From Minisyncoccota bacterium (GTDB lineage Bacteria > Patescibacteriota > Minisyncoccia > Phycocordibacterales > PALSA-1337), in the NCBI GenBank assembly GCA_041671485.1, contig JBAZBL010000001.1, positions 23,037-87,036 on the forward strand: DNA of 64,000 nucleotides. Reading direction: 5' to 3'. The translations under genes were made by a program, and so were the position numbers. The notes below the pieces were generated by a model. It was not told the DNA's origin. It did not search any database and saw nothing but the letters and a program-made list of their open reading frames with translations. Positions 7,137 to 62,509 of the stretch are shown here, one piece after another. Positions within the stretch are counted from its first letter, which is position 1, and every line of letters begins with the position of its first letter.

Positions 7137-7700
7137 ATGGAAAATGACTCTATAAATATAGTATCAGATGATAGTTTGGACGATTCGGTCGTAGCAGAAG
7201 AACATACAGGAGAAATGATAAAGAAGCTTCGCGAGAAGCTGAAGATCTGTGAAAAAGAAAAACTTGAATATCTAACAGGTTGGCAACGAGCCAAGGCCGA
7301 TCTTATTAATGCTAGAAAAAGAGATGATGATGATCGTAAAGAATTTATCAGATTTGCAAATGAAGGACTTTTGAATGATATACTGCCTGTTCTAGAGAGT
7401 TGGGACTCTGCAATGAATCACAAAGAATCTTGGGAAAAGGGAGATCCGAGCTGGAGGCAGGGGATGGAGTCTATCATAAATCAATTGAAGGGAGTTCTTT
7501 CTAATAATGGTCTAGCAGAGATAAACCCACTAGGAGAGAAGTTTGACCATTCCAAACATGAATCTGTATCACATAAAATAGTTGATGATGCCAAACTCGA
7601 CCAAATGATTCTTGATGTTGTACAAAAAGGTTATTCTCTGGGTGATAAAATATTGAAGCCTGCAAAGGTGGTAGTAGCTGAATACCGGGCTGTAGTATAG
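7137..7700 (+). CDS. grpE: Nucleotide exchange factor GrpE (3' end overlaps tRNA-Pro by ~15 nt)
   Basis: 187 aa. 'WQRAKADLINARKR' (the GrpE 'AEFENYRKR'-like motif), 'LPVLESWDSAM' and the C-terminal 'PAKVVVAE' are present. The stop TAG at 7698-7700 lies inside the predicted tRNA. Confidence 0.8.
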   Translation: MENDSINIVSDDSLDDSVVAEEHTGEMIKKLREKLKICEKEKLEYLTGWQRAKADLINARKRDDDDRKEFIRFANEGLLNDILPVLESWDSAMNHKESWEKGDPSWRQGMESIINQLKGVLSNNGLAEINPLGEKFDHSKHESVSHKIVDDAKLDQMILDVVQKGYSLGDKILKPAKVVVAEYRAVV

Positions 7701-7756
7701 CGGTAGTATACACCCATGGGGTGGGTGTAGTCCGGGTTCGACTCCCGGCAGCCCGA
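7686..7756 (+). tRNA. tRNA-Pro (anticodon GGG), atypical D/anticodon junction (71 nt, no encoded CCA)
   Basis: Perfect 7-bp acceptor CGGGCTG/CAGCCCG with discriminator A. D arm GTAT/ATAC with loop AGCGGTAGT. T arm CCGGG-TTCGACT-CCCGG. Anticodon hairpin CACCC-[ATGGGGT]-GGGTG gives U33-GGG-G37. The stretch between the D stem and the T stem is 2-3 nt shorter than canonical, so the fold is non-standard. Confidence 0.55.
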
Positions 7757-7773
7757 AGGGATGAAACAAGTCG
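7739..7773 (+). repeat. 35-bp direct repeat copy 1 (tRNA-Pro T-loop/3' end plus 17 nt of 3' flank)
   Basis: CGACTCCCGGCAGCCCGAAGGGATGAAACAAGTCG, identical to 7874-7908. Confidence 0.9.
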
Positions 7774-7873
7774 CTAATGCGACTTGTTTAGGGAGGCGAA
7801 AGGGTTTTCGATGTTTGCGAGGACGAGCTTGTCGAGTCCAAGCAAACCGAAAACCACCTGGCGACGTAGTCGC

Positions 7874-7908
7874 CGACTCCCGGCAGCCCGAAGGGATGAA
7901 ACAAGTCG
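7874..7908 (+). repeat. 35-bp direct repeat copy 2 (displaced partial tRNA-Pro 3' end); a third degenerate fragment GTAGTCCGAC at ~7925-7935
   Basis: Exact 35/35 match to 7739-7773. It is preceded by GTAGTC...GCC, which mimics the tRNA variable-loop/T-stem region with a deletion. Confidence 0.9.
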
Positions 7909-7933
7909 TTTTAACGACTTCCTGGTAGTCCGA

Positions 7934-9502
7934 CTAAAACGAGAAACTAAATGTGCTACCCATTCCAGATCCATCCGACTCTGCCCAAATCTTGCCTTTG
8001 TGACGCTCTATAATGTCTTTGGACATGTATAAACCTATACCCATGCCTTCTGTATATTGAGAACGGGCACGATTGCCACGATAAAATTTACTAAAGAGTA
8101 ATGGTATTTCTTCTTTTGGTACTCCAATACCACTATCCTTGACAGAATAAACAATTGTACCATTGATTGTATTTTTTAGTGATATAACTATAGTACCATT
8201 TTCTTTTGAATAGTGAATTGCATTCTCTAAGAATACCTGAATTACAAATTTTATTCGACTTTCATCACATACTGTATTTACATTTTGATCAAAATTTTTC
8301 TCTATTTGTAGTTTCTTTGCTCCAATTTGATCTTTCAATGAATCCACAATATCTTCAATTAGTGGATTTAGATTAATATTTGTTTTGTGATATTCATATG
8401 ATGCATTGTCAGTCTCTGAAACATTGATAAGTAAATCTGTAAGACCTACAAGCTTTGAATTTGCTTCACGGATATAGTCTATTTGTGTACGGTCTTCTAC
8501 ATTTGAGACTGTTTTATTGAGATTCTCTGCGGCCCATTTGATATGTGTAAGTGGTGTTCTAAATTTGTGTGTAACTGTTGTAATAAATTCGTATTTGAGT
8601 AGATCTTGTTCACGCAATCTACGCCATACGACTATCGCTATACTAACAACAATGATAGATATAATTATCGGTGAAACCCAAATCGGAAAATTCTGATAAT
8701 AGACTTGTGCTAGTCTATTGAAATAATCAAACAATGCTATAACTCCACCAACCAAAGCAATAGCAACGCCATAAAAAAATGCTTGTTTGGCAATAACTTT
8801 TATATCACACAATCCGTATTTCACAGCACCATATATTAAAAATGGTACAGATAGGCCAAGGAATGCCATACCCCAGACAGGGTCTATATGTATATTATAT
8901 ACAAGAAAATTGGCAGTATTTCCTGGAACATAGCCAAAAAACATTGCCAATATAAAATATTTTATTTTATTTCTCCAAAGTGTATCTTCTTTCTTGGCTT
9001 TGAAATATGCAACAATAAGTAAGTACATACAATATGGAAATATCAATACATACATAAATAACATACGAACAAAGTTCAAAACTCCAGGATCATAGTAATT
9101 TGGAAAATACATCTTTGGTATTGATGGGAGCAAGAATGTCTCTGGGAATATAATGAAAAATACAAGCATAGATATGCTAAAAGCATATACTAGAGATATA
9201 CTATATCTACTCTTATATTCTATATTTAGGAATGTTGTGATTCCGTGATAATTGAAAGTAATTATAAAAAAGTTAACTAGGTTGAACATCAATGCAATCT
9301 TAGAAATATTTGGATCGGCAATATTGACGCCTATTACATGGGAAAGGGAAAATATAGCAGCACATAGCATTGTAAGAGCAAGTAGTATAGTAGTCTTTGA
9401 TCTAAAATTATTGAAAAAGAAAAATGAAGCCAAACCAATACCAGCTATTACTGATACAATACTCAAAATATTGTGAATAATTAGATTTATATTTGCATCC
9501 AT
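7934..9502 (-). CDS. Membrane-bound sensor histidine kinase (multi-TM N-terminus, HisKA + HATPase_c)
   Basis: 522 aa. About 8 predicted TM helices. H-box 'THKFRTPLTHIKWAAENL'. ATPase G-boxes 'DSGIGVPKEEIPLLFSKFYRG' and 'GMGIGLYMSKDII'. No cognate response regulator is adjacent. Confidence 0.85.
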   Translation of the reverse strand: MDANINLIIHNILSIVSVIAGIGLASFFFFNNFRSKTTILLALTMLCAAIFSLSHVIGVNIADPNISKIALMFNLVNFFIITFNYHGITTFLNIEYKSRYSISLVYAFSISMLVFFIIFPETFLLPSIPKMYFPNYYDPGVLNFVRMLFMYVLIFPYCMYLLIVAYFKAKKEDTLWRNKIKYFILAMFFGYVPGNTANFLVYNIHIDPVWGMAFLGLSVPFLIYGAVKYGLCDIKVIAKQAFFYGVAIALVGGVIALFDYFNRLAQVYYQNFPIWVSPIIISIIVVSIAIVVWRRLREQDLLKYEFITTVTHKFRTPLTHIKWAAENLNKTVSNVEDRTQIDYIREANSKLVGLTDLLINVSETDNASYEYHKTNINLNPLIEDIVDSLKDQIGAKKLQIEKNFDQNVNTVCDESRIKFVIQVFLENAIHYSKENGTIVISLKNTINGTIVYSVKDSGIGVPKEEIPLLFSKFYRGNRARSQYTEGMGIGLYMSKDIIERHKGKIWAESDGSGMGSTFSFSF

Positions 9503-30918: not shown

Positions 30919-31002
30919 GCGCAGGTGGCAGAGTGGTCAATTGCAGTGGACTGTAAATCCATCGCCCTATGGGCTCCGGGGGTTCAAATCCCTCCCTGCG
31001 CA
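30919..31002 (+). tRNA. tRNA-Tyr (GTA), class II with long variable arm
   Basis: Acceptor GCGCAGG/CCTGCGC with discriminator A. Anticodon arm GTGGA-[CTGTAAA]-TCCAT. Variable hairpin GCCC-TAT-GGGC. T arm GGGGG-TTCAAAT-CCCTC. Confidence 0.9.
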
Positions 31003-31012
31003 CATGAAAAAA

Positions 31013-31032
31013 CCGAGCAAAGCTCGGTTTTT
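31013..31032 (+). terminator. Rho-independent terminator CCGAGC-AAA-GCTCGG-TTTTT immediately after tRNA-Tyr
   Basis: 6-bp GC stem followed by a T5 tract. Confidence 0.7.
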
Positions 31033-31187
31033 GAGTGGACGCAGAGCAAAGCGCTTGAGCGCTTTGCGTGGAGGGATTTGAAAAGGTCGAGCATATTTTC
31101 GAACCTGAGCGAGCGATCAGCGAGTCGAAGGTGAGAAAATGCGAGACCTGTACAGAGTCTGTAAGACTCAAATCCCTCCCTGCGCAC
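31033..31187 (+). mobile_element. tRNA-3'-end-associated miniature element (copy 1), ending in a 20-bp duplicate of the tRNA-Tyr 3' end
   Basis: The direct repeat TCAAATCCCTCCCTGCGCAC occurs at 30984-31003 and 31168-31187. The left arm ACGCAG-[GC hairpin AGCAAAGCGCTTGAGCGCTTTGC]-GTGGAGGGATTTGAA is antisense to the tRNA 3' end. A ~60-nt core GAAAAGGTCGAGCATATTTTCGAACCTGAGCGAGCGATCAGCGAGTCGAAGGTGAGAAAATGCGA is ~97% identical to 43378-43438. Confidence 0.7.
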
Positions 31188-31219
31188 AAAATTTTACGTC
31201 AAGGTTAGTTCTTGCTGTA

Positions 31220-32554: not shown

Positions 32555-32839
32555 GTGCGAATGTTTGAGGACGATGAACGGAGTATTATGATCCAAAAAC
32601 AAAGATTCATTTTGTCTGTCGCCATGTTGATGGCCCTGGTAGCAGCGCTACTAGTGTTCATCAGCTATCCAAAAGAGGTGGCGCCGGTGATGACTCCGGT
32701 CATCACGAACACGGCTCCTGTAGAGGAGATCGTTGAGACCAACAATGTAGTCACCAATTCCGCGAAAGTGGATGGGGTGATAAACAAAACTGGATCAGTC
32801 TCGGTGACTGGAACAGTTCGTGCAGAGTTCGGGAAGTGA
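32555..32839 (+). CDS. Small membrane-anchored hypothetical protein (GC-rich island)
   Basis: 94 aa. One TM ('FILSVAMLMALVAALLVFI') and a Thr/Val-rich tail. Its GC content is distinctly higher than the surrounding genome. Confidence 0.5.
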   Translation: MRMFEDDERSIMIQKQRFILSVAMLMALVAALLVFISYPKEVAPVMTPVITNTAPVEEIVETNNVVTNSAKVDGVINKTGSVSVTGTVRAEFGK

Positions 32840-32898
32840 AGTGCAGTGCAGAAAACAACAGAAACAAACACAACAAACAGAGAAGAAAGACAACGCAG

Positions 32899-33990
32899 AT
32901 GAAAAAAACACAAATCCTATCGGTAATCTTATCAGTCACACTGCTCGCAGTCGGCGCCTTTGCGCAATCACCTCCAGCTTCTAGCGGTGGTGGTTCGAGC
33001 GGAGGCACGGGGACAATCGTGGTTCCGGCAGATAAAATGCCAACCGCGCTTGCCTTCCTCGGTTCCAAGGCGGCACTACGCGCTTTCGCTCGTGAAAGTG
33101 CAAGGAGCGCGAACTTAAACATCAACTCTGCCGGCATGCAGGGTACATGGGGAACTGGTTCCTCATGGGATTCCCCAAAAAGTCAAGAACAAATCCTTTC
33201 GATAATCAATGCGTGGAGGTTCACCTTCACCATGGAGAATCCAGCGGATTCTGTTCAGGCGACGACGGAAATCAAGAACAGCGACTGGGAGACTCTCTTC
33301 AGCGCGGAGTCTTGGCGGACGCCACAGCTTGTGAGTGGAAGTAGTTACCGATTGCCGGAACTTTACTTCCACTTAACACTGGCGGATATCATCCCATTCA
33401 AGGTTGACAGGTCGGTTCAATGGGGTCAAATCAAGTACCTCAATGACGACGGCAGAACGATCACTACCGTTGACCTTGTTGTCCGGAACGGAAAAGTTTA
33501 TTTCCGATCCGATCTCGCAGGTAAGGGAATTCTCGTCCTGCACAATAACGATGGGAGAACATTCCTGTATAACCTCCGGAATGGTGGAGTACAGGTACCA
33601 GTTGCAAGTGTTCAGTACATGGGGAGTTCCTCGTGGATTGAGAATATGCCATGGTTCAACAACCCAAGCACCATCAATCAGCAGGTCTGGAGCTGGAATG
33701 GTGTTGGCCAAAATCCTACATTCGATGTCAACATGGACTCGAGTGCATGGGTATCGTTCAGGACATATTCCAACGAAGGTGCCGAAGCGATTGGTTTCCA
33801 GGTACGACCACAAGGTGGCACGAACTGGACTTTCTATCCGGTTGTCCTACCTGCCAAGTATGTACCAATCCAACTCACCCCAGGCACCTCGTTTATCATT
33901 CCGGTATGGAATCCGGATGAGTTCAAGGAACCGGAGCCGTACATTCCTGAGAATGGGACGCCGGTGGGTTTCTTCGATGGTAAGGGTTAA
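32899..33990 (+). CDS. Secreted hypothetical protein with signal peptide (GC-rich island); start at ATG 32899
   Basis: 'MKKTQILSVILSVTLLAVGAFAQSP' looks like a signal peptide. It is followed by a Gly/Ser linker and a ~330-aa beta-rich domain rich in W and Y. No family was recognised. Confidence 0.6.
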   Translation: MKKTQILSVILSVTLLAVGAFAQSPPASSGGGSSGGTGTIVVPADKMPTALAFLGSKAALRAFARESARSANLNINSAGMQGTWGTGSSWDSPKSQEQILSIINAWRFTFTMENPADSVQATTEIKNSDWETLFSAESWRTPQLVSGSSYRLPELYFHLTLADIIPFKVDRSVQWGQIKYLNDDGRTITTVDLVVRNGKVYFRSDLAGKGILVLHNNDGRTFLYNLRNGGVQVPVASVQYMGSSSWIENMPWFNNPSTINQQVWSWNGVGQNPTFDVNMDSSAWVSFRTYSNEGAEAIGFQVRPQGGTNWTFYPVVLPAKYVPIQLTPGTSFIIPVWNPDEFKEPEPYIPENGTPVGFFDGKG

Positions 33991-37196: not shown

Positions 37197-37514
37197 TTAT
37201 GCAAATCCAACAACCTCTTTCTGAATTCTCCTGGCATAACTAATATCTTTTAAACTTATTCTCCAAGCTTTCTTGATAAAACCATGAACAATGTATGCTT
37301 TATTATTCTGGAATACGTACAAGATTCTTATTTGATTTTTACCAAGAGTTCTAAGTTCAAATAACCCCTTACCCAGACTTTTAGAATCAGGCATCCCTAA
37401 TAAATATCCGAATTTTTCCAGAGAATTTACTGTCTTTTTTATGCGGGAGGATGTGATCTTGTCTAGACCATTTATAAATTCTCGCACTTTTTCATTCCAA
37501 TAAATTATTTCCAT
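37197..37514 (-). CDS. RelE/HigB-type toxin (Gp49-like, DUF891 family)
   Basis: 'GLFELRTLGKNQIRILYVFQNNKAYIVHGFIKK' matches the Gp49/HigB family pattern. It lies upstream of an XRE antitoxin, the reversed HigBA order. Confidence 0.7.
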   Translation of the reverse strand: MEIIYWNEKVREFINGLDKITSSRIKKTVNSLEKFGYLLGMPDSKSLGKGLFELRTLGKNQIRILYVFQNNKAYIVHGFIKKAWRISLKDISYARRIQKEVVGFA

Positions 37515-37598
37515 ATCCGCATAATACATCACACATAAGAAAATGCAAAAAGATGGCATTGAATGACTGTGTCCACTTTATGGGGTACAGATCAATTG

Positions 37599-37680
37599 TG
37601 CCGGGAGAGAGAATCGAACTCTCATGGATTACTCCGTACGATTTTGAGTCGTATGCGTCTACCAATTCCGCCATCCCGGC
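37599..37680 (-). tRNA. tRNA-Leu (CAA), class II
   Basis: Reverse complement reads GCCGGGATGGCGGAATTGGTAGACGCATACGACTCAAAATCGTACGGAGTAATCCATGAGAGTTCGATTCTCTCTCCCGGCA. Anticodon arm TACGA-[CTCAAAA]-TCGTA, with a long variable arm. Confidence 0.9.
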
Positions 37681-41874: not shown

Positions 41875-42246
41875 ATGATAAAAAACAAGAATAAATTTAA
41901 GAAGAGGTTGTATTCATGGACTTTGAATATAATTAGATTAACAGACACATTACCTGATTTATTGTCTGCGGATGTAATAGGTAAACAATTGATGAGAAGC
42001 GGAACAAGCATTATTGCCAATTATGTTGAAGCAAAATCTGCCAGTTCAAGAAAAGATTATATAAACTTTTTCACTCACGCACTAAAATCTGCCAATGAAT
42101 CAAAAGTGTGGTTAACAATGATGAAAGATTTAGAAATTGGAAATAGAGAGCAAACCTGTGTATTATTAAGAGAGTTAGATGAAATATCAAAAATATTGGC
42201 ATCTAGTATCATAACCCTTAAGAATAAAGGTGATAAAAATCTTTGA
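41875..42246 (+). CDS. Four-helix-bundle protein (family often found in rRNA IVS/tRNA loci)
   Basis: 'LMRSGTSIIANYVEAKSASSRKDYINFFTHALKSANESKVWL' fits the four-helix-bundle (PF05635-like) pattern. Family membership is recalled from memory. Confidence 0.6.
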   Translation: MIKNKNKFKKRLYSWTLNIIRLTDTLPDLLSADVIGKQLMRSGTSIIANYVEAKSASSRKDYINFFTHALKSANESKVWLTMMKDLEIGNREQTCVLLRELDEISKILASSIITLKNKGDKNL

Positions 42247-43011: not shown

Positions 43012-43083
43012 GGCCACGTAGACAAGTGGTAAGTCAGCGGTCTGCAAAACCGCTATACGCGAGTTCGATTCTCGCCGTGGCCT
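43012..43083 (+). tRNA. tRNA-Cys (GCA)
   Basis: Acceptor GGCCACG/CGTGGCC with discriminator U, as is universal for Cys. Anticodon arm GCGGT-[CTGCAAA]-ACCGC. T arm GCGAG-TTCGATT-CTCGC. Confidence 0.9.
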
Positions 43084-43220
43084 CTGCGAATTTTGCATAA
43101 GCGTAGCGAATGGCAAAATTCAGCATCCTCTCGAAGTTCGATCCGCCAGCTGGCGGAGAGGGACGAAGCAGGAATTAGTATTAATTTTTGATCTTTGATT
43201 TTTAATTTTTGACTTAATAT

Positions 43221-43304: not shown

Positions 43305-43486
43305 CACTAAAAAATATATAATGATAGACTTATTTGCCCGGGAGCAAGGTGCATTTGCACCTTGCGAGTGAGAATCGAAAAGTCTGAGCATATTTTCGAA
43401 CCTGAGCGAGCGATCAGCGAGTGGAAGGTGAGAAAATGCGAAGACTATACCGTTCCAGTATGGAAAGATTCCCACCCCGGGCACAC
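43305..43486 (+). mobile_element. tRNA-3'-end-associated miniature element (copy 2), ending in a 20-bp duplicate of the tRNA-Leu(TAA) 3' end
   Basis: The direct repeat GATTCCCACCCCGGGCACAC occurs at 43288-43307 and 43467-43486. The left arm TTTGCCCGGG-[GC hairpin AGCAAGGTGCATTTGCACCTTGC]-GAGTGAGAATCGAA is antisense to the tRNA 3' end. The ~60-nt core at 43378-43438 is shared with the tRNA-Tyr copy. Confidence 0.7.
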
Positions 43487-43502
43487 TTGATCTGTACCCC
43501 AT

Positions 43503-61608: not shown

Positions 61609-61843
61609 ATGGGTATTATAGCAAGAAAGTATATGAATTTCTTTATGCTAGAGTTATCAACAACAAGTAAATTTGACTATATATATCCAATTTGTTAGTC
61701 TTTAATTAGAAGTATGCAATAATAACTTACGAGGTGCTCCGATGTTCCCTCAGAATATCTGGGGCTTGAGTTGGAGAACACCACCTTGTGAGACGCTACT
61801 TCTAACAAAGAACCCCTTTCCACTTCGGTCAGGGATTTTTTGT

Positions 61844-62509
61844 TTATATTATAATCGATTTTCCATTGAACAATTCCCTCCCCTTTCCAATAATATTTTT
61901 CTTCAGAATTTTGAAACATTCCTCACCTAGTTTTCCTTTTTCAAGATATCGTGCCAAAGCTCCTGCAATCCAGTCGGCAATTTGAATATTCACTACCGCA
62001 GTTGAATCAACCATTTCAATTTGTAAAACTACACCCTTTGGCAAGGATGGTAACAGACGAGCTTTTAGGACTTCCTTGAATTCTGTCTCGGACATACCAC
62101 TCAATCTTCTACGGTCGCAGAAAACACGAAACTCTTTATCAGTTGTCGGTAAATATGATGTTAGTATTTCGCCGACTATATTTGTATATAAAAGTCCGCT
62201 CTGTAATTTATTTTTATGATGATACTCTGCTGGAATATTTCTATGAAGTAAATAGGCAAAATGTATTCGAACATCTAGTTTTGAAATCTCTCTCAAAGTC
62301 TTTAGGCGTAAGGCATCAGAAAATCCGGTACTTGCCCATTTAATCTCACTCAGATCACGCATCTTTCTAGGAAAATGGCCACGAAGCCATGCTCGAAATC
62401 CCTTTGCTGTTCGCCGAACATTGCCAACAGTAAATGAAGCAACAATAAAATAGTTTTTATTACTGTACTTGGAAAATTGTCCACTTTCATCAAGAAAAAT
62501 ATATGGCAT
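61844..62509 (-). CDS. DUF3800-family protein
   Basis: N-terminal 'YIFLDESG' and C-terminal 'IQIADWIAGAL' match the DUF3800 signature motifs. Family membership is recalled from memory. Confidence 0.6.
   Translation of the reverse strand: MPYIFLDESGQFSKYSNKNYFIVASFTVGNVRRTAKGFRAWLRGHFPRKMRDLSEIKWASTGFSDALRLKTLREISKLDVRIHFAYLLHRNIPAEYHHKNKLQSGLLYTNIVGEILTSYLPTTDKEFRVFCDRRRLSGMSETEFKEVLKARLLPSLPKGVVLQIEMVDSTAVVNIQIADWIAGALARYLEKGKLGEECFKILKKNIIGKGRELFNGKSIII

Follow-up and report, generated by a model that had tools for sequence, protein, structure and literature searches.

The 64,000-nt stretch analysed here, hereafter the window, comes from a Minisyncoccota bacterium (contig JBAZBL010000001.1, positions 23,037 to 87,036). 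In it, the tRNA-Pro(GGG) gene is directly followed by a short tandem array, which consists of one complete 135-nt unit and one truncated unit and carries copies of the tRNA 3' end. The units behind tRNA-Tyr and tRNA-Leu(TAA) are elements of the same kind with one common architecture. By analogy with the RtT repeats of Escherichia coli, and with about even confidence, we read the Pro locus as a small tandem array of RtT-like units. Such units would evolve by recombination or slippage and be co-transcribed with the tRNA; the RNA ends would be defined by tRNA enzymes, and a rod-shaped hairpin would be the functional part. A preliminary description of the window had interpreted the locus as an integration hotspot, which, in the ordinary meaning of the term, it is not.

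The tRNA-Pro(GGG) gene and the repeat of its 3' end

The preliminary description had proposed an ARAGORN run as one check. The program does find tRNA-Pro(GGG), and the gene scores 55.9 bits with the Rfam tRNA model, compared to a gathering score of 29. It has what canonical bacterial tRNAs have, namely a cloverleaf and recognition by both ARAGORN and Rfam; the acceptor, D, anticodon and T arms are all intact, and the variable loop is 4 nt long. The atypical geometry noticed earlier is also borne out. The junction between the D and anticodon arms is 1 nt short, and the molecule can be drawn either with nucleotide 26 missing and a 5-bp anticodon stem (-27.9 kcal) or with a 4-bp anticodon stem (-26.1 kcal). 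In the sister species described below, the gene differs by one change, A44G. This conservation rules out a pseudogene, and tRNA-Pro is thus a conserved, slightly compact tRNA.

An exact 35-nt direct repeat, consisting of the tRNA 3' end and 17 nt of flank, occurs at 7739-7773 and again at 7874-7908 with 100 nt between the copies, just as had been reported. The repeat is recovered by repeat finding and by a k-mer scan, and repeat finding extends the similarity to 47 nt at 89% identity; no exact 35-mer repeat is expected by chance in 64 kb. The further degenerate fragment claimed downstream was recovered as GTAGTCCGACT at 7925-7935, which corresponds to the GTAGTC of the tRNA plus CGACT with CGGGTT deleted. 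Repeat copy 2 has the same pattern, GTAGTC-GC-CGACTCCC. The stop codon of the convergent histidine kinase gene overlaps this third fragment. The sequence of the locus is identical in an independent ENA contig, and in two other runs Logan contigs begin at position 7879, exactly 30 nt before repeat copy 2 closes. Since this distance equals the k-1 overlap, the breaks indicate a real repeat and no assembly artefact.

The grpE open reading frame (ORF) does run 15 nt into tRNA-Pro, and the first 15 nt of the tRNA encode RAVV*, the last four codons plus the stop. Compared to the sister locus (L187, 3545-3585), the overlap at 7680-7700 goes back to a 31-nt deletion (AAGAAGAATAACTAAACTGTTTGAATATTAC, lying between GAATAC and GAATATTAC) that is specific to this lineage, and it has nothing to do with integration. 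It should be mentioned that RNase P cutting at the 5' end of tRNA-Pro would take the grpE stop codon off the mRNA.

Anatomy and fold of the Pro unit

The minimum free energy (MFE) fold of the complete Pro unit as RNA has an energy of -62.4 kcal/mol with a z-score of -6.37, and none of 200 shuffled sequences folds as well. Folded as DNA, the unit reaches a z-score of -8.0. The fold agrees with what the order of parts in the sequence had led us to expect, and these parts are listed in Table 1. The last element of the unit is the tRNA 3'-end copy, CGACUCCCGGCAGCCCGA. A short internal segment, referred to as antisense-T, matches the reverse complement of the T-loop/T-stem 3' strand of tRNA-Pro (TTCGACTCCC) at 9 of its 10 positions. 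The small hairpin at 7860-7874 was flagged in a terminator scan as terminator-like on the minus strand, where it would serve the convergent kinase gene. The truncated second unit has neither the antisense segment nor the rod; its CCTGG-GTAGTCCGACT end, which contains the third fragment of the preliminary description, is a decayed remnant of the small hairpin and 3' copy.

Table 1. Coordinates of the tRNA-linked units, their parts and adjoining genes. Positions are those of the window, except for the last three rows, which refer to metagenome loci.
Feature	Position	Strand	Description	Basis
grpE ORF	7137-7700	+		ORF list; Pfam GrpE match
tRNA-Pro(GGG)	7686-7756	+	71 nt, without encoded CCA	ARAGORN; Rfam tRNA model
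Direct repeat copy 1	7739-7773	+	18 nt of tRNA (T-loop position 56 to discriminator; tRNA nt 54-71) plus 17 nt of trailer	
Direct repeat copy 2	7874-7908	+	7874-7891, copy of tRNA 3' end; 7892-7908, copy of trailer start	
Complete Pro trailer unit	7757-7891	+	135 nt; acceptor-like stem, hairpin 1, T-like stem enclosing rod and small hairpin	
5' acceptor-like strand	7758-7763	+	GGGAUG; its partner in the 3' copy is CAGCCC, covering 5 of 7 acceptor positions	MFE
Hairpin 1	7764-7789	+	AAACAAGTCGC TAAT GCGACTTGTTT; 11-bp perfect stem	Inverted repeat; MFE
Antisense-T segment	7791-7800	+	GGGAGGCGAA; GGGAG pairs with CUCCC of the 3' copy	
Rod hairpin	7803-7855	+	53 nt with G-A internal loops: GGUUUUCG-AU-GUUUGC-GA-GGAC-GA-G-CUUGU-C-GA-GUCC-AA-GCAAAC-CGAAAACC	
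Small hairpin	7860-7874	+	15 nt; GGCGAC GUA GUCGCC	MFE
Truncated second unit	7892-7935	+	AGGGATG; hairpin 1' (AAGTCG TTTTAA CGACTT); CCTGG-GTAGTCCGACT	
Histidine kinase gene	7934-9502	-	Convergent	Pfam HisKA/HATPase_c; ORF list
tRNA-Tyr trailer unit	31004-31188	+	Same design as Pro unit; fold z -6.47	
Tyr terminator-like hairpin	~31008-31032			
Tyr 5' acceptor strand	31040-31044		CGCAG	
Tyr hairpin 1	31046-31067			
Tyr antisense-T	31070-31082			
Tyr rod with cap	31098-31138			
Tyr small hairpin				
Tyr tRNA 3'-end copy	31168-31188		21 nt	
tRNA-Leu(TAA) trailer unit	43306-43487	+	Same design as Pro unit; fold z -7.59	
Leu 5' acceptor strand	43336-43342		GCCCGGG	
Leu hairpin 1	43344-43365			
Leu antisense-T	43368-43379			
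Leu rod with cap	43395-43435			
Leu small hairpin				
Leu tRNA 3'-end copy	43467-43487		21 nt	
Soil-family example, L060	1905-2011			
Soil-family example, L073	3539-3638			
Soil-family example, L099	942-1045	-		

Units of the same design behind tRNA-Tyr and tRNA-Leu(TAA)

Downstream copies of the tRNA 3' end are present at three of the eight tRNA genes in the window, those for Pro, Tyr and Leu(TAA). About 70 tRNAs of other loci gave a single match, 12 nt of T arm shared with a neighbouring tRNA. All three units have the same succession of parts, and their antisense-T segments match their own tRNA: 13 of 13 positions in Tyr (GGAGGGATTTGAA) and 11 of 12 in Leu (GTGAGAATCGAA), next to the 9 of 10 in Pro. 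In the MFE fold of each unit this segment pairs with the tRNA-end copy. The Leu antisense segment is one mismatch away from a perfect complement of the T arms of both tRNA-Leu(TAA) and the neighbouring tRNA-Cys (43012-43084).

The Tyr and Leu units can be aligned with each other. Among 48 predicted pairs, 14 are compensatory, with both sides changed, and none is broken; 9 of the 14 are located beyond the arms derived from the tRNA. Over their central 55 nt, the two rods differ by one base. Such a pattern is the mark of selection acting on a single strand in its folded form and does not suit decaying scar DNA.

The relation of the Pro unit to the other two is one of design. The preliminary description had noted a loose resemblance between the Pro insert and the Tyr/Leu core. 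It does not hold up: BLAST found no similarity between them, and local alignment yields nothing better than chance (p 0.3-0.5). We also made use of a covariance model, R1, of the hairpin with G-A pairs that caps the Tyr and Leu rods, built from 51 metagenome and genome copies in other organisms. R1 finds the Tyr core with 39.5 bits (E 5e-10) and the Leu core with 27.6 bits (E 3e-6), and gives no match on the Pro insert at E <= 10. The Pro unit therefore agrees with the other two in design, down to a rod with G-A loops, and lacks the cap module. The idea that one element family occupies all three tRNAs thus stands as far as the shared architecture is concerned and fails for the sequence kinship of the Pro insert, which is no better than chance.

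Comparison with a sister species and more distant relatives

A close relative in Logan assemblies, here called the sister species, has a GrpE identical at 166 of 187 positions (89%), with 92% identity in clpB (nucleotide) and 88% in the kinase. SRR6484324, SRR18595301 and SRR22216446/48/51 are among the sequencing runs in which the organism of the window or this sister is present. Its gene order is grpE (ending ...AEYKKNN*), about 20 nt of spacer and tRNA-Pro, followed by AGGGATGGAACA at the contig end. The contig on the kinase side begins with GCCGACTCCCGGCAGCCCGAAGGGATGGAATAATTG, a copy of the tRNA 3' end that has the GC junction seen in copy 2 of the window. Given the same gene order and the same GC junction, the arrangement of grpE, tRNA-Pro, copy and kinase is ancestral to both species and predates their split. 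The AGGGATG after the 3' copies is conserved in the sister species, and the region of the truncated second unit (7892-7935) has diverged. The ends of the sister contigs, as branch points of the assembly graph, require another copy of the GC type; the sister species therefore appears to carry at least two non-tRNA copies at tRNA-Pro, and the Pro copy number probably differs between the species. In more distant relatives, with a GrpE of about 70% identity, grpE is followed by dnaK without a tRNA-Pro, compared to grpE-tRNA-Pro-kinase here.

At tRNA-Tyr the two species differ. The tRNA-Tyr of the sister species is identical and has an encoded CCA (L188, 3270-3285); it is followed by an AT-rich spacer and a pilin-like gene, and both the Tyr unit and the cap are absent from this locus. 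The window flank after Tyr copy 2 (CAAAATTTT) resembles the flank after tRNA-Tyr in the sister species (CCAAATATTTT). The Tyr unit is thus a 184-nt block between 21-nt repeats; either the lineage of the window gained it or the sister species lost it. It is noted that tRNA-Tyr in the window is followed by CAT (31000-31005), and the distal copy by CAA and the sister-like flank (31184-31195). Considering the loci together, units come and go as whole blocks that have the repeated tRNA 3' end at their borders.

Resemblance to E. coli RtT and to other known systems

The tyrT-tyrV-rttR locus of E. coli K-12 contains four RtT units (Rfam RF00391), with RtT units behind both tyrT and tyrV. They recur every 178 nt, and this period takes in the final 19 nt of tRNA-Tyr. 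They score 133-138 bits with the Rfam model, for which the gathering threshold is 45. In the Rfam consensus the outer stem is formed by an internal GgGaaGG that pairs with CCuuCcC of the tRNA copy, and the unit ends with CCACCA. The interior hairpin is CGAGCG-loop-GCGAG, and model R1 weakly matches all four units (E 0.0015-0.007 in 1.8 kb). The annotated E. coli small RNA RttR begins immediately downstream of tyrV and stops where the first copy ends. According to one published account, RtT is freed from tRNA operon transcripts and possibly modulates the stringent response (PMC4986893, citing Bosl and Kersten 1991); RtT is also expressed beside other tRNAs in Pasteurellaceae (PMC4986893). Repeats of the rtT type have been classed with BIMEs and can act as attenuators or terminators (PMC2965389).

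The units in the window resemble RtT in several respects. They lie in the spacer or trailer of a tRNA on the same strand and are repeated in tandem; each closes by pairing of an internal segment with a terminal tRNA copy (about 19 nt in E. coli, 18 nt in Pro and 21 nt in Tyr and Leu); and each has a hairpin closed by tandem G-A pairs. They differ in the host phylum, which is Paceibacterota here and Gammaproteobacteria for RtT, and in their occurrence at three different tRNAs, each with its own matched unit. They also have an additional hairpin that separates the 5' acceptor strand from antisense-T, no encoded CCA and no tpr-like ORF. By analogy, the units in the window would work like RtT while being filed outside RF00391.

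Several other systems share part of this architecture. Integration sites in tRNA and tmRNA genes are said to have been classified by Williams in 2002. The attL/attR sites of tyrosine integrases likewise show a direct repeat from the T-loop to or past the tRNA 3' end, with the original flank after the distal copy. However, the present units come without integrase or cargo, their inserts are 100-163 nt, and they have a conserved fold with sequence antisense to the repeat. REP, BIME and REPIN elements are GC-rich imperfect palindromes between convergent genes, and the Tyr/Leu cap is indeed dispersed or in tandem in other genomes; the present units differ from them in their low copy number (2 caps and 3 units in 64 kb), their tRNA-specific arms and their strict orientation to tRNAs. 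No RAYT transposase was found among the window proteins scanned.

Mimics of tRNA are known to serve as RNase P and RNase Z handles for neighbouring RNA, as in MALAT1 mascRNA, the tRNA-miRNA units of gammaherpesvirus 68 and the 3'ETS-leuZ trailer RNA. A mimic that gives an adjacent structured RNA its defined ends is the working model that we adopt here by analogy, although those mimics are cloverleaf-like and are not known to be copied from the end of a neighbouring tRNA or to carry a rod with G-A loops. Integron attC sites and the attP hairpin of CTX phage are recombination sites made of folded single strands. They share with the units a structure that is kept while the sequence varies and inverted site halves around a variable hairpin; they differ in that the target of the units would be a tRNA gene, and neither an integron integrase nor an Xer-type site was identified.

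Whether run at the gathering threshold or at permissive ones, Rfam searches returned no family for the Pro, Tyr or Leu inserts. A hammerhead or other self-cleaving ribozyme was rejected, since the core is not compatible with one and an Rfam match is lacking. A Y RNA or YrlA gave only a weak match confined to the T arm of the tRNA. An IS200/IS605 element or a miniature inverted-repeat transposable element with fixed terminal repeats was discarded as well, the 'terminal repeats' varying between copies and following the tRNA.

A wider tRNA-linked family with the Tyr/Leu cap hairpin

The cap has the form stem-GA-GC-GA-GC-loop-GC-GA-GUC-GA-stem, with a co-varying basal stem. It is present in genomes of Acidimicrobiia, Acidobacteriota and Thermoanaerobaculia and is very common in soil metagenomes; in the window there are two caps only, those of Tyr and Leu. 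In relation to tRNA genes, 42 of 126 instances lie within 200 nt downstream of a tRNA on the same strand, with 2 upstream and 1 on the opposite strand.

In the soil loci the element starts directly after the CCA with TTCGACTCGC, the reverse complement of part of the cap. The general form of this tRNA-linked family is TTCGACTCGCC, a variable hairpin, GGCTCGCTCATGGCRRGCC, a short spacer and TCGAATGCCCTGAGCGAGCG..GCGAGTCGAAGGGC; its 5' part corresponds to the cap in reverse complement, interrupted by a hairpin. The host bacteria are GC-rich, and 37 non-redundant examples were collected after about a dozen tRNA species (metagenome loci L051-L170; three are given in Table 1). No copy of the tRNA end was found in the tRNA-linked soil cap elements. 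Neither the cap hairpin nor the soil family has an Rfam match.

The cap also occurs in other settings. A 23-nt unit, GAGCGAGCG-N-AGCGAGTCGAAGG, which is the cap repeated head to tail, forms tandem arrays (L058, L070, L121, L130 and L151). In the viral contig IMGVR_UViG_3300031555_011079 (L047), the cap (GTCATCCTGAGCGAGCGNAGCGAGTCGAAGGATC) lies inside a dispersed repeat of about 170 nt, of which five copies are found in 14 kb at sites between 720 and 12640. At L064 (1640-1710, minus strand), a low-GC (33%) contig resembling those of the candidate phyla radiation (CPR), a stand-alone rod with G-A loops of the Tyr/Leu type overlaps the stop codon of a gene with no tRNA nearby.

A scan of a genome collection with a gapped pattern for the Pro and Tyr/Leu cores returned 36 matches, mostly due to chance. 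True relatives of the Tyr/Leu core were found only at L013, L021 and L034, none of them adjoining a tRNA. In viral contigs, one pattern had no match, a second gave cap repeats without a tRNA link, and the matches to the Pro-rod pattern were chance matches in coding sequence.

Genomic context and proposed mechanism

Housekeeping genes flank the units: grpE and the histidine kinase at Pro, clpB and alr at Tyr, tRNA-Cys and infB at Leu. Each unit is situated between a plus-strand tRNA and a convergent minus-strand gene (the kinase, alr and infB, respectively). Among the annotated window proteins, no integrase or transposase is encoded by the genes neighbouring any of the three units. No promoter-like site was found between each tRNA and its unit, and none ahead of tRNA-Pro. 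Because no such site precedes it, tRNA-Pro is probably co-transcribed with grpE, and the transcript of the Pro unit would come from the rpoA-...-grpE operon.

On this basis the following scheme can be proposed. The unit would be transcribed as the 3' trailer of its tRNA, at Pro from the operon just named. With the 3' copy, the acceptor-like strand and the antisense-T segment in place, the single strand closes, in the predicted folds, into a helix resembling an acceptor/T arm, on which the rod with its G-A loops and the small hairpin are displayed. This tRNA-like helix may let RNase P, a 3' nuclease and the CCA-adding enzyme release a stable small RNA, such that the RNA would derive from the tRNA precursor. 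The rod could be the working part of the released RNA, as has been proposed for the rtT RNA of E. coli. Through recombination or slippage between the tRNA 3'-end copies, units could multiply, shrink and disappear, with no need for a large integrative element.

Weighing of the explanations

Several points weigh against this RtT-like reading. The 163 nt between the Tyr repeats are absent from the sister locus, and a simple local duplication cannot create the Tyr unit. Without an Rfam match to the RtT model, which gave none for the Pro, Tyr and Leu units at E <= 10, homology to RtT is unproven and the likeness may be convergent. The RNA-level function suggested for the units is drawn from the analogy with RtT. 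Under nearest-neighbour rules both strands fold almost equally well, so a strand test by folding energy is uninformative, and the unit also folds well as DNA; a role as single-stranded DNA is conceivable. The Pro rod has no significant sequence in common with the Tyr and Leu rods, and the case for a single family that includes Pro is the design itself. At Tyr, the terminator-like hairpin directly 3' of the tRNA could stop transcription ahead of the unit.

The preliminary description had suggested repeated integration and excision at tRNA-Pro. In the classical form of this reading, a phage or genomic island with a tyrosine integrase would have used tRNA-Pro as its attachment site and left attL/attR duplications together with a remnant of 100 nt. 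Such events typically leave a tRNA 3' end that is duplicated beginning in the T-loop, the third degenerate fragment suggests more than one of them, and the gene order here is changed relative to distant relatives with grpE-dnaK. However, no integrase or transposase lies near the units, there is no cargo, and the inserts are 100-163 nt (100 nt at Pro). Remnants alike in size and architecture would be required at three loci, and the remnant would have to be a conserved fold kept by compensatory changes; the antisense and 5' acceptor-like segments are unexpected in att remnants. It had also been said that orthologous loci showing the same arrangement as a stable, ancestral feature would count against integration. 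For Pro this is largely what is found, the sister species having grpE, tRNA-Pro, a copy with the GC junction and the kinase in the same order. A classical scar is strongly disfavoured and, in our estimate, highly improbable. It is quite unlikely, on a smaller scale, that the units are miniature non-autonomous integrative elements, with the replacement tRNA 3' end as an attP-like part and a single strand, folded back through its antisense segment, that presents a duplex core to a recombinase acting in trans. Such elements would account for the direct repeats from T-loop to tRNA end, as at tRNA att sites, and for the three different tRNA targets with arms matched to each. They would also fit the strong folding as DNA and a structure kept while sequence drifts, the hallmark of folded single-strand recombination sites. 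The Tyr unit shows a clean presence/absence difference with the sister species, where the likeness of the flanks suggests that copy 2 is the displaced original end; yet this difference is equally explained by loss via recombination between the repeats. In the annotated parts of the window, the units and their surroundings included, no recombinase is seen, and no free or circular copy of a unit and no match in phage records or viral contigs was found. The Pro array is conserved in the sister species and not variable in position, and the hairpin between the 5' acceptor strand and antisense-T is more in keeping with a tRNA-like RNA junction than with a duplex site. In a further version, which we consider decidedly unlikely, the units and E. 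coli RtT would together be recombinase-less micro-elements. Their folded strand would mimic a tRNA 3' end, recombine with it, regenerate the tRNA and leave the displaced end behind, with lineages tuned to particular tRNAs and the cap as a shared recognition module.

Another explanation dispenses with a specific RNA. The units could be palindromes similar to REP or BIME, GC-rich hairpins in an AT-rich genome that act as bidirectional terminators or as insulators separating the tRNA from the convergent gene, with the tRNA-derived ends as by-products. The location of all three units between a plus-strand tRNA and a convergent minus-strand gene would be consistent with this, as would the terminator-like character of the small hairpin for the minus-strand kinase gene. 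The Tyr/Leu cap occurs in many phyla as dispersed repeats, 23-nt tandem arrays and stand-alone hairpins at gene ends, and rtT-like repeats have been classed with BIMEs and shown to attenuate (PMC2965389). This explanation does not, however, account for arms matched to the unit's own tRNA on both sides of the rod, or for the strict position of the cap downstream of tRNAs on the same strand (42 versus 1). Moreover, two caps in 64 kb do not make a high-copy repeat, and the scanned window proteins include no RAYT-type transposase. We regard it as unlikely, though a real contender.

Other features of the window

A gene for a four-helix-bundle '23S rRNA intervening-sequence protein' (41875-42246) lies in the interval between tRNA-Lys and tRNA-Leu(TAG), and a Gp49/HigB-like toxin gene (37197-37559) directly adjoins tRNA-Leu(CAA) (37598-37680). 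Between alr and tRNA-Trp there is a GC-rich ORF of 384 aa (32836-33990) without a Pfam match; besides an identical protein, it has four homologues only at E <= 1e-100. Its assignment as EF-Tu was rejected after a protein search. A DUF3800-V RNA (Rfam RF02964, 82.6 bits) at 61708-61803 adjoins a DUF3800 gene on the opposite strand (61844-62509).

Implications

For genome annotation, the loci described here indicate that a duplicated tRNA 3' end alone is no evidence of an integrated mobile element. The cap hairpin, which follows the tRNA CCA in many soil bacteria and lies outside Rfam, suggests a large uncatalogued family of tRNA-linked elements. RtT repeats were recognised behind E. coli tyrT decades ago; their role has stayed obscure, and they have been treated as an enterobacterial peculiarity. 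A CPR bacterium has the same design, with a tRNA-end copy, a segment antisense to it and an intervening G-A-loop hairpin, at three different tRNAs and with the arms tuned to each; this points to a general way to build tRNA-trailer elements.

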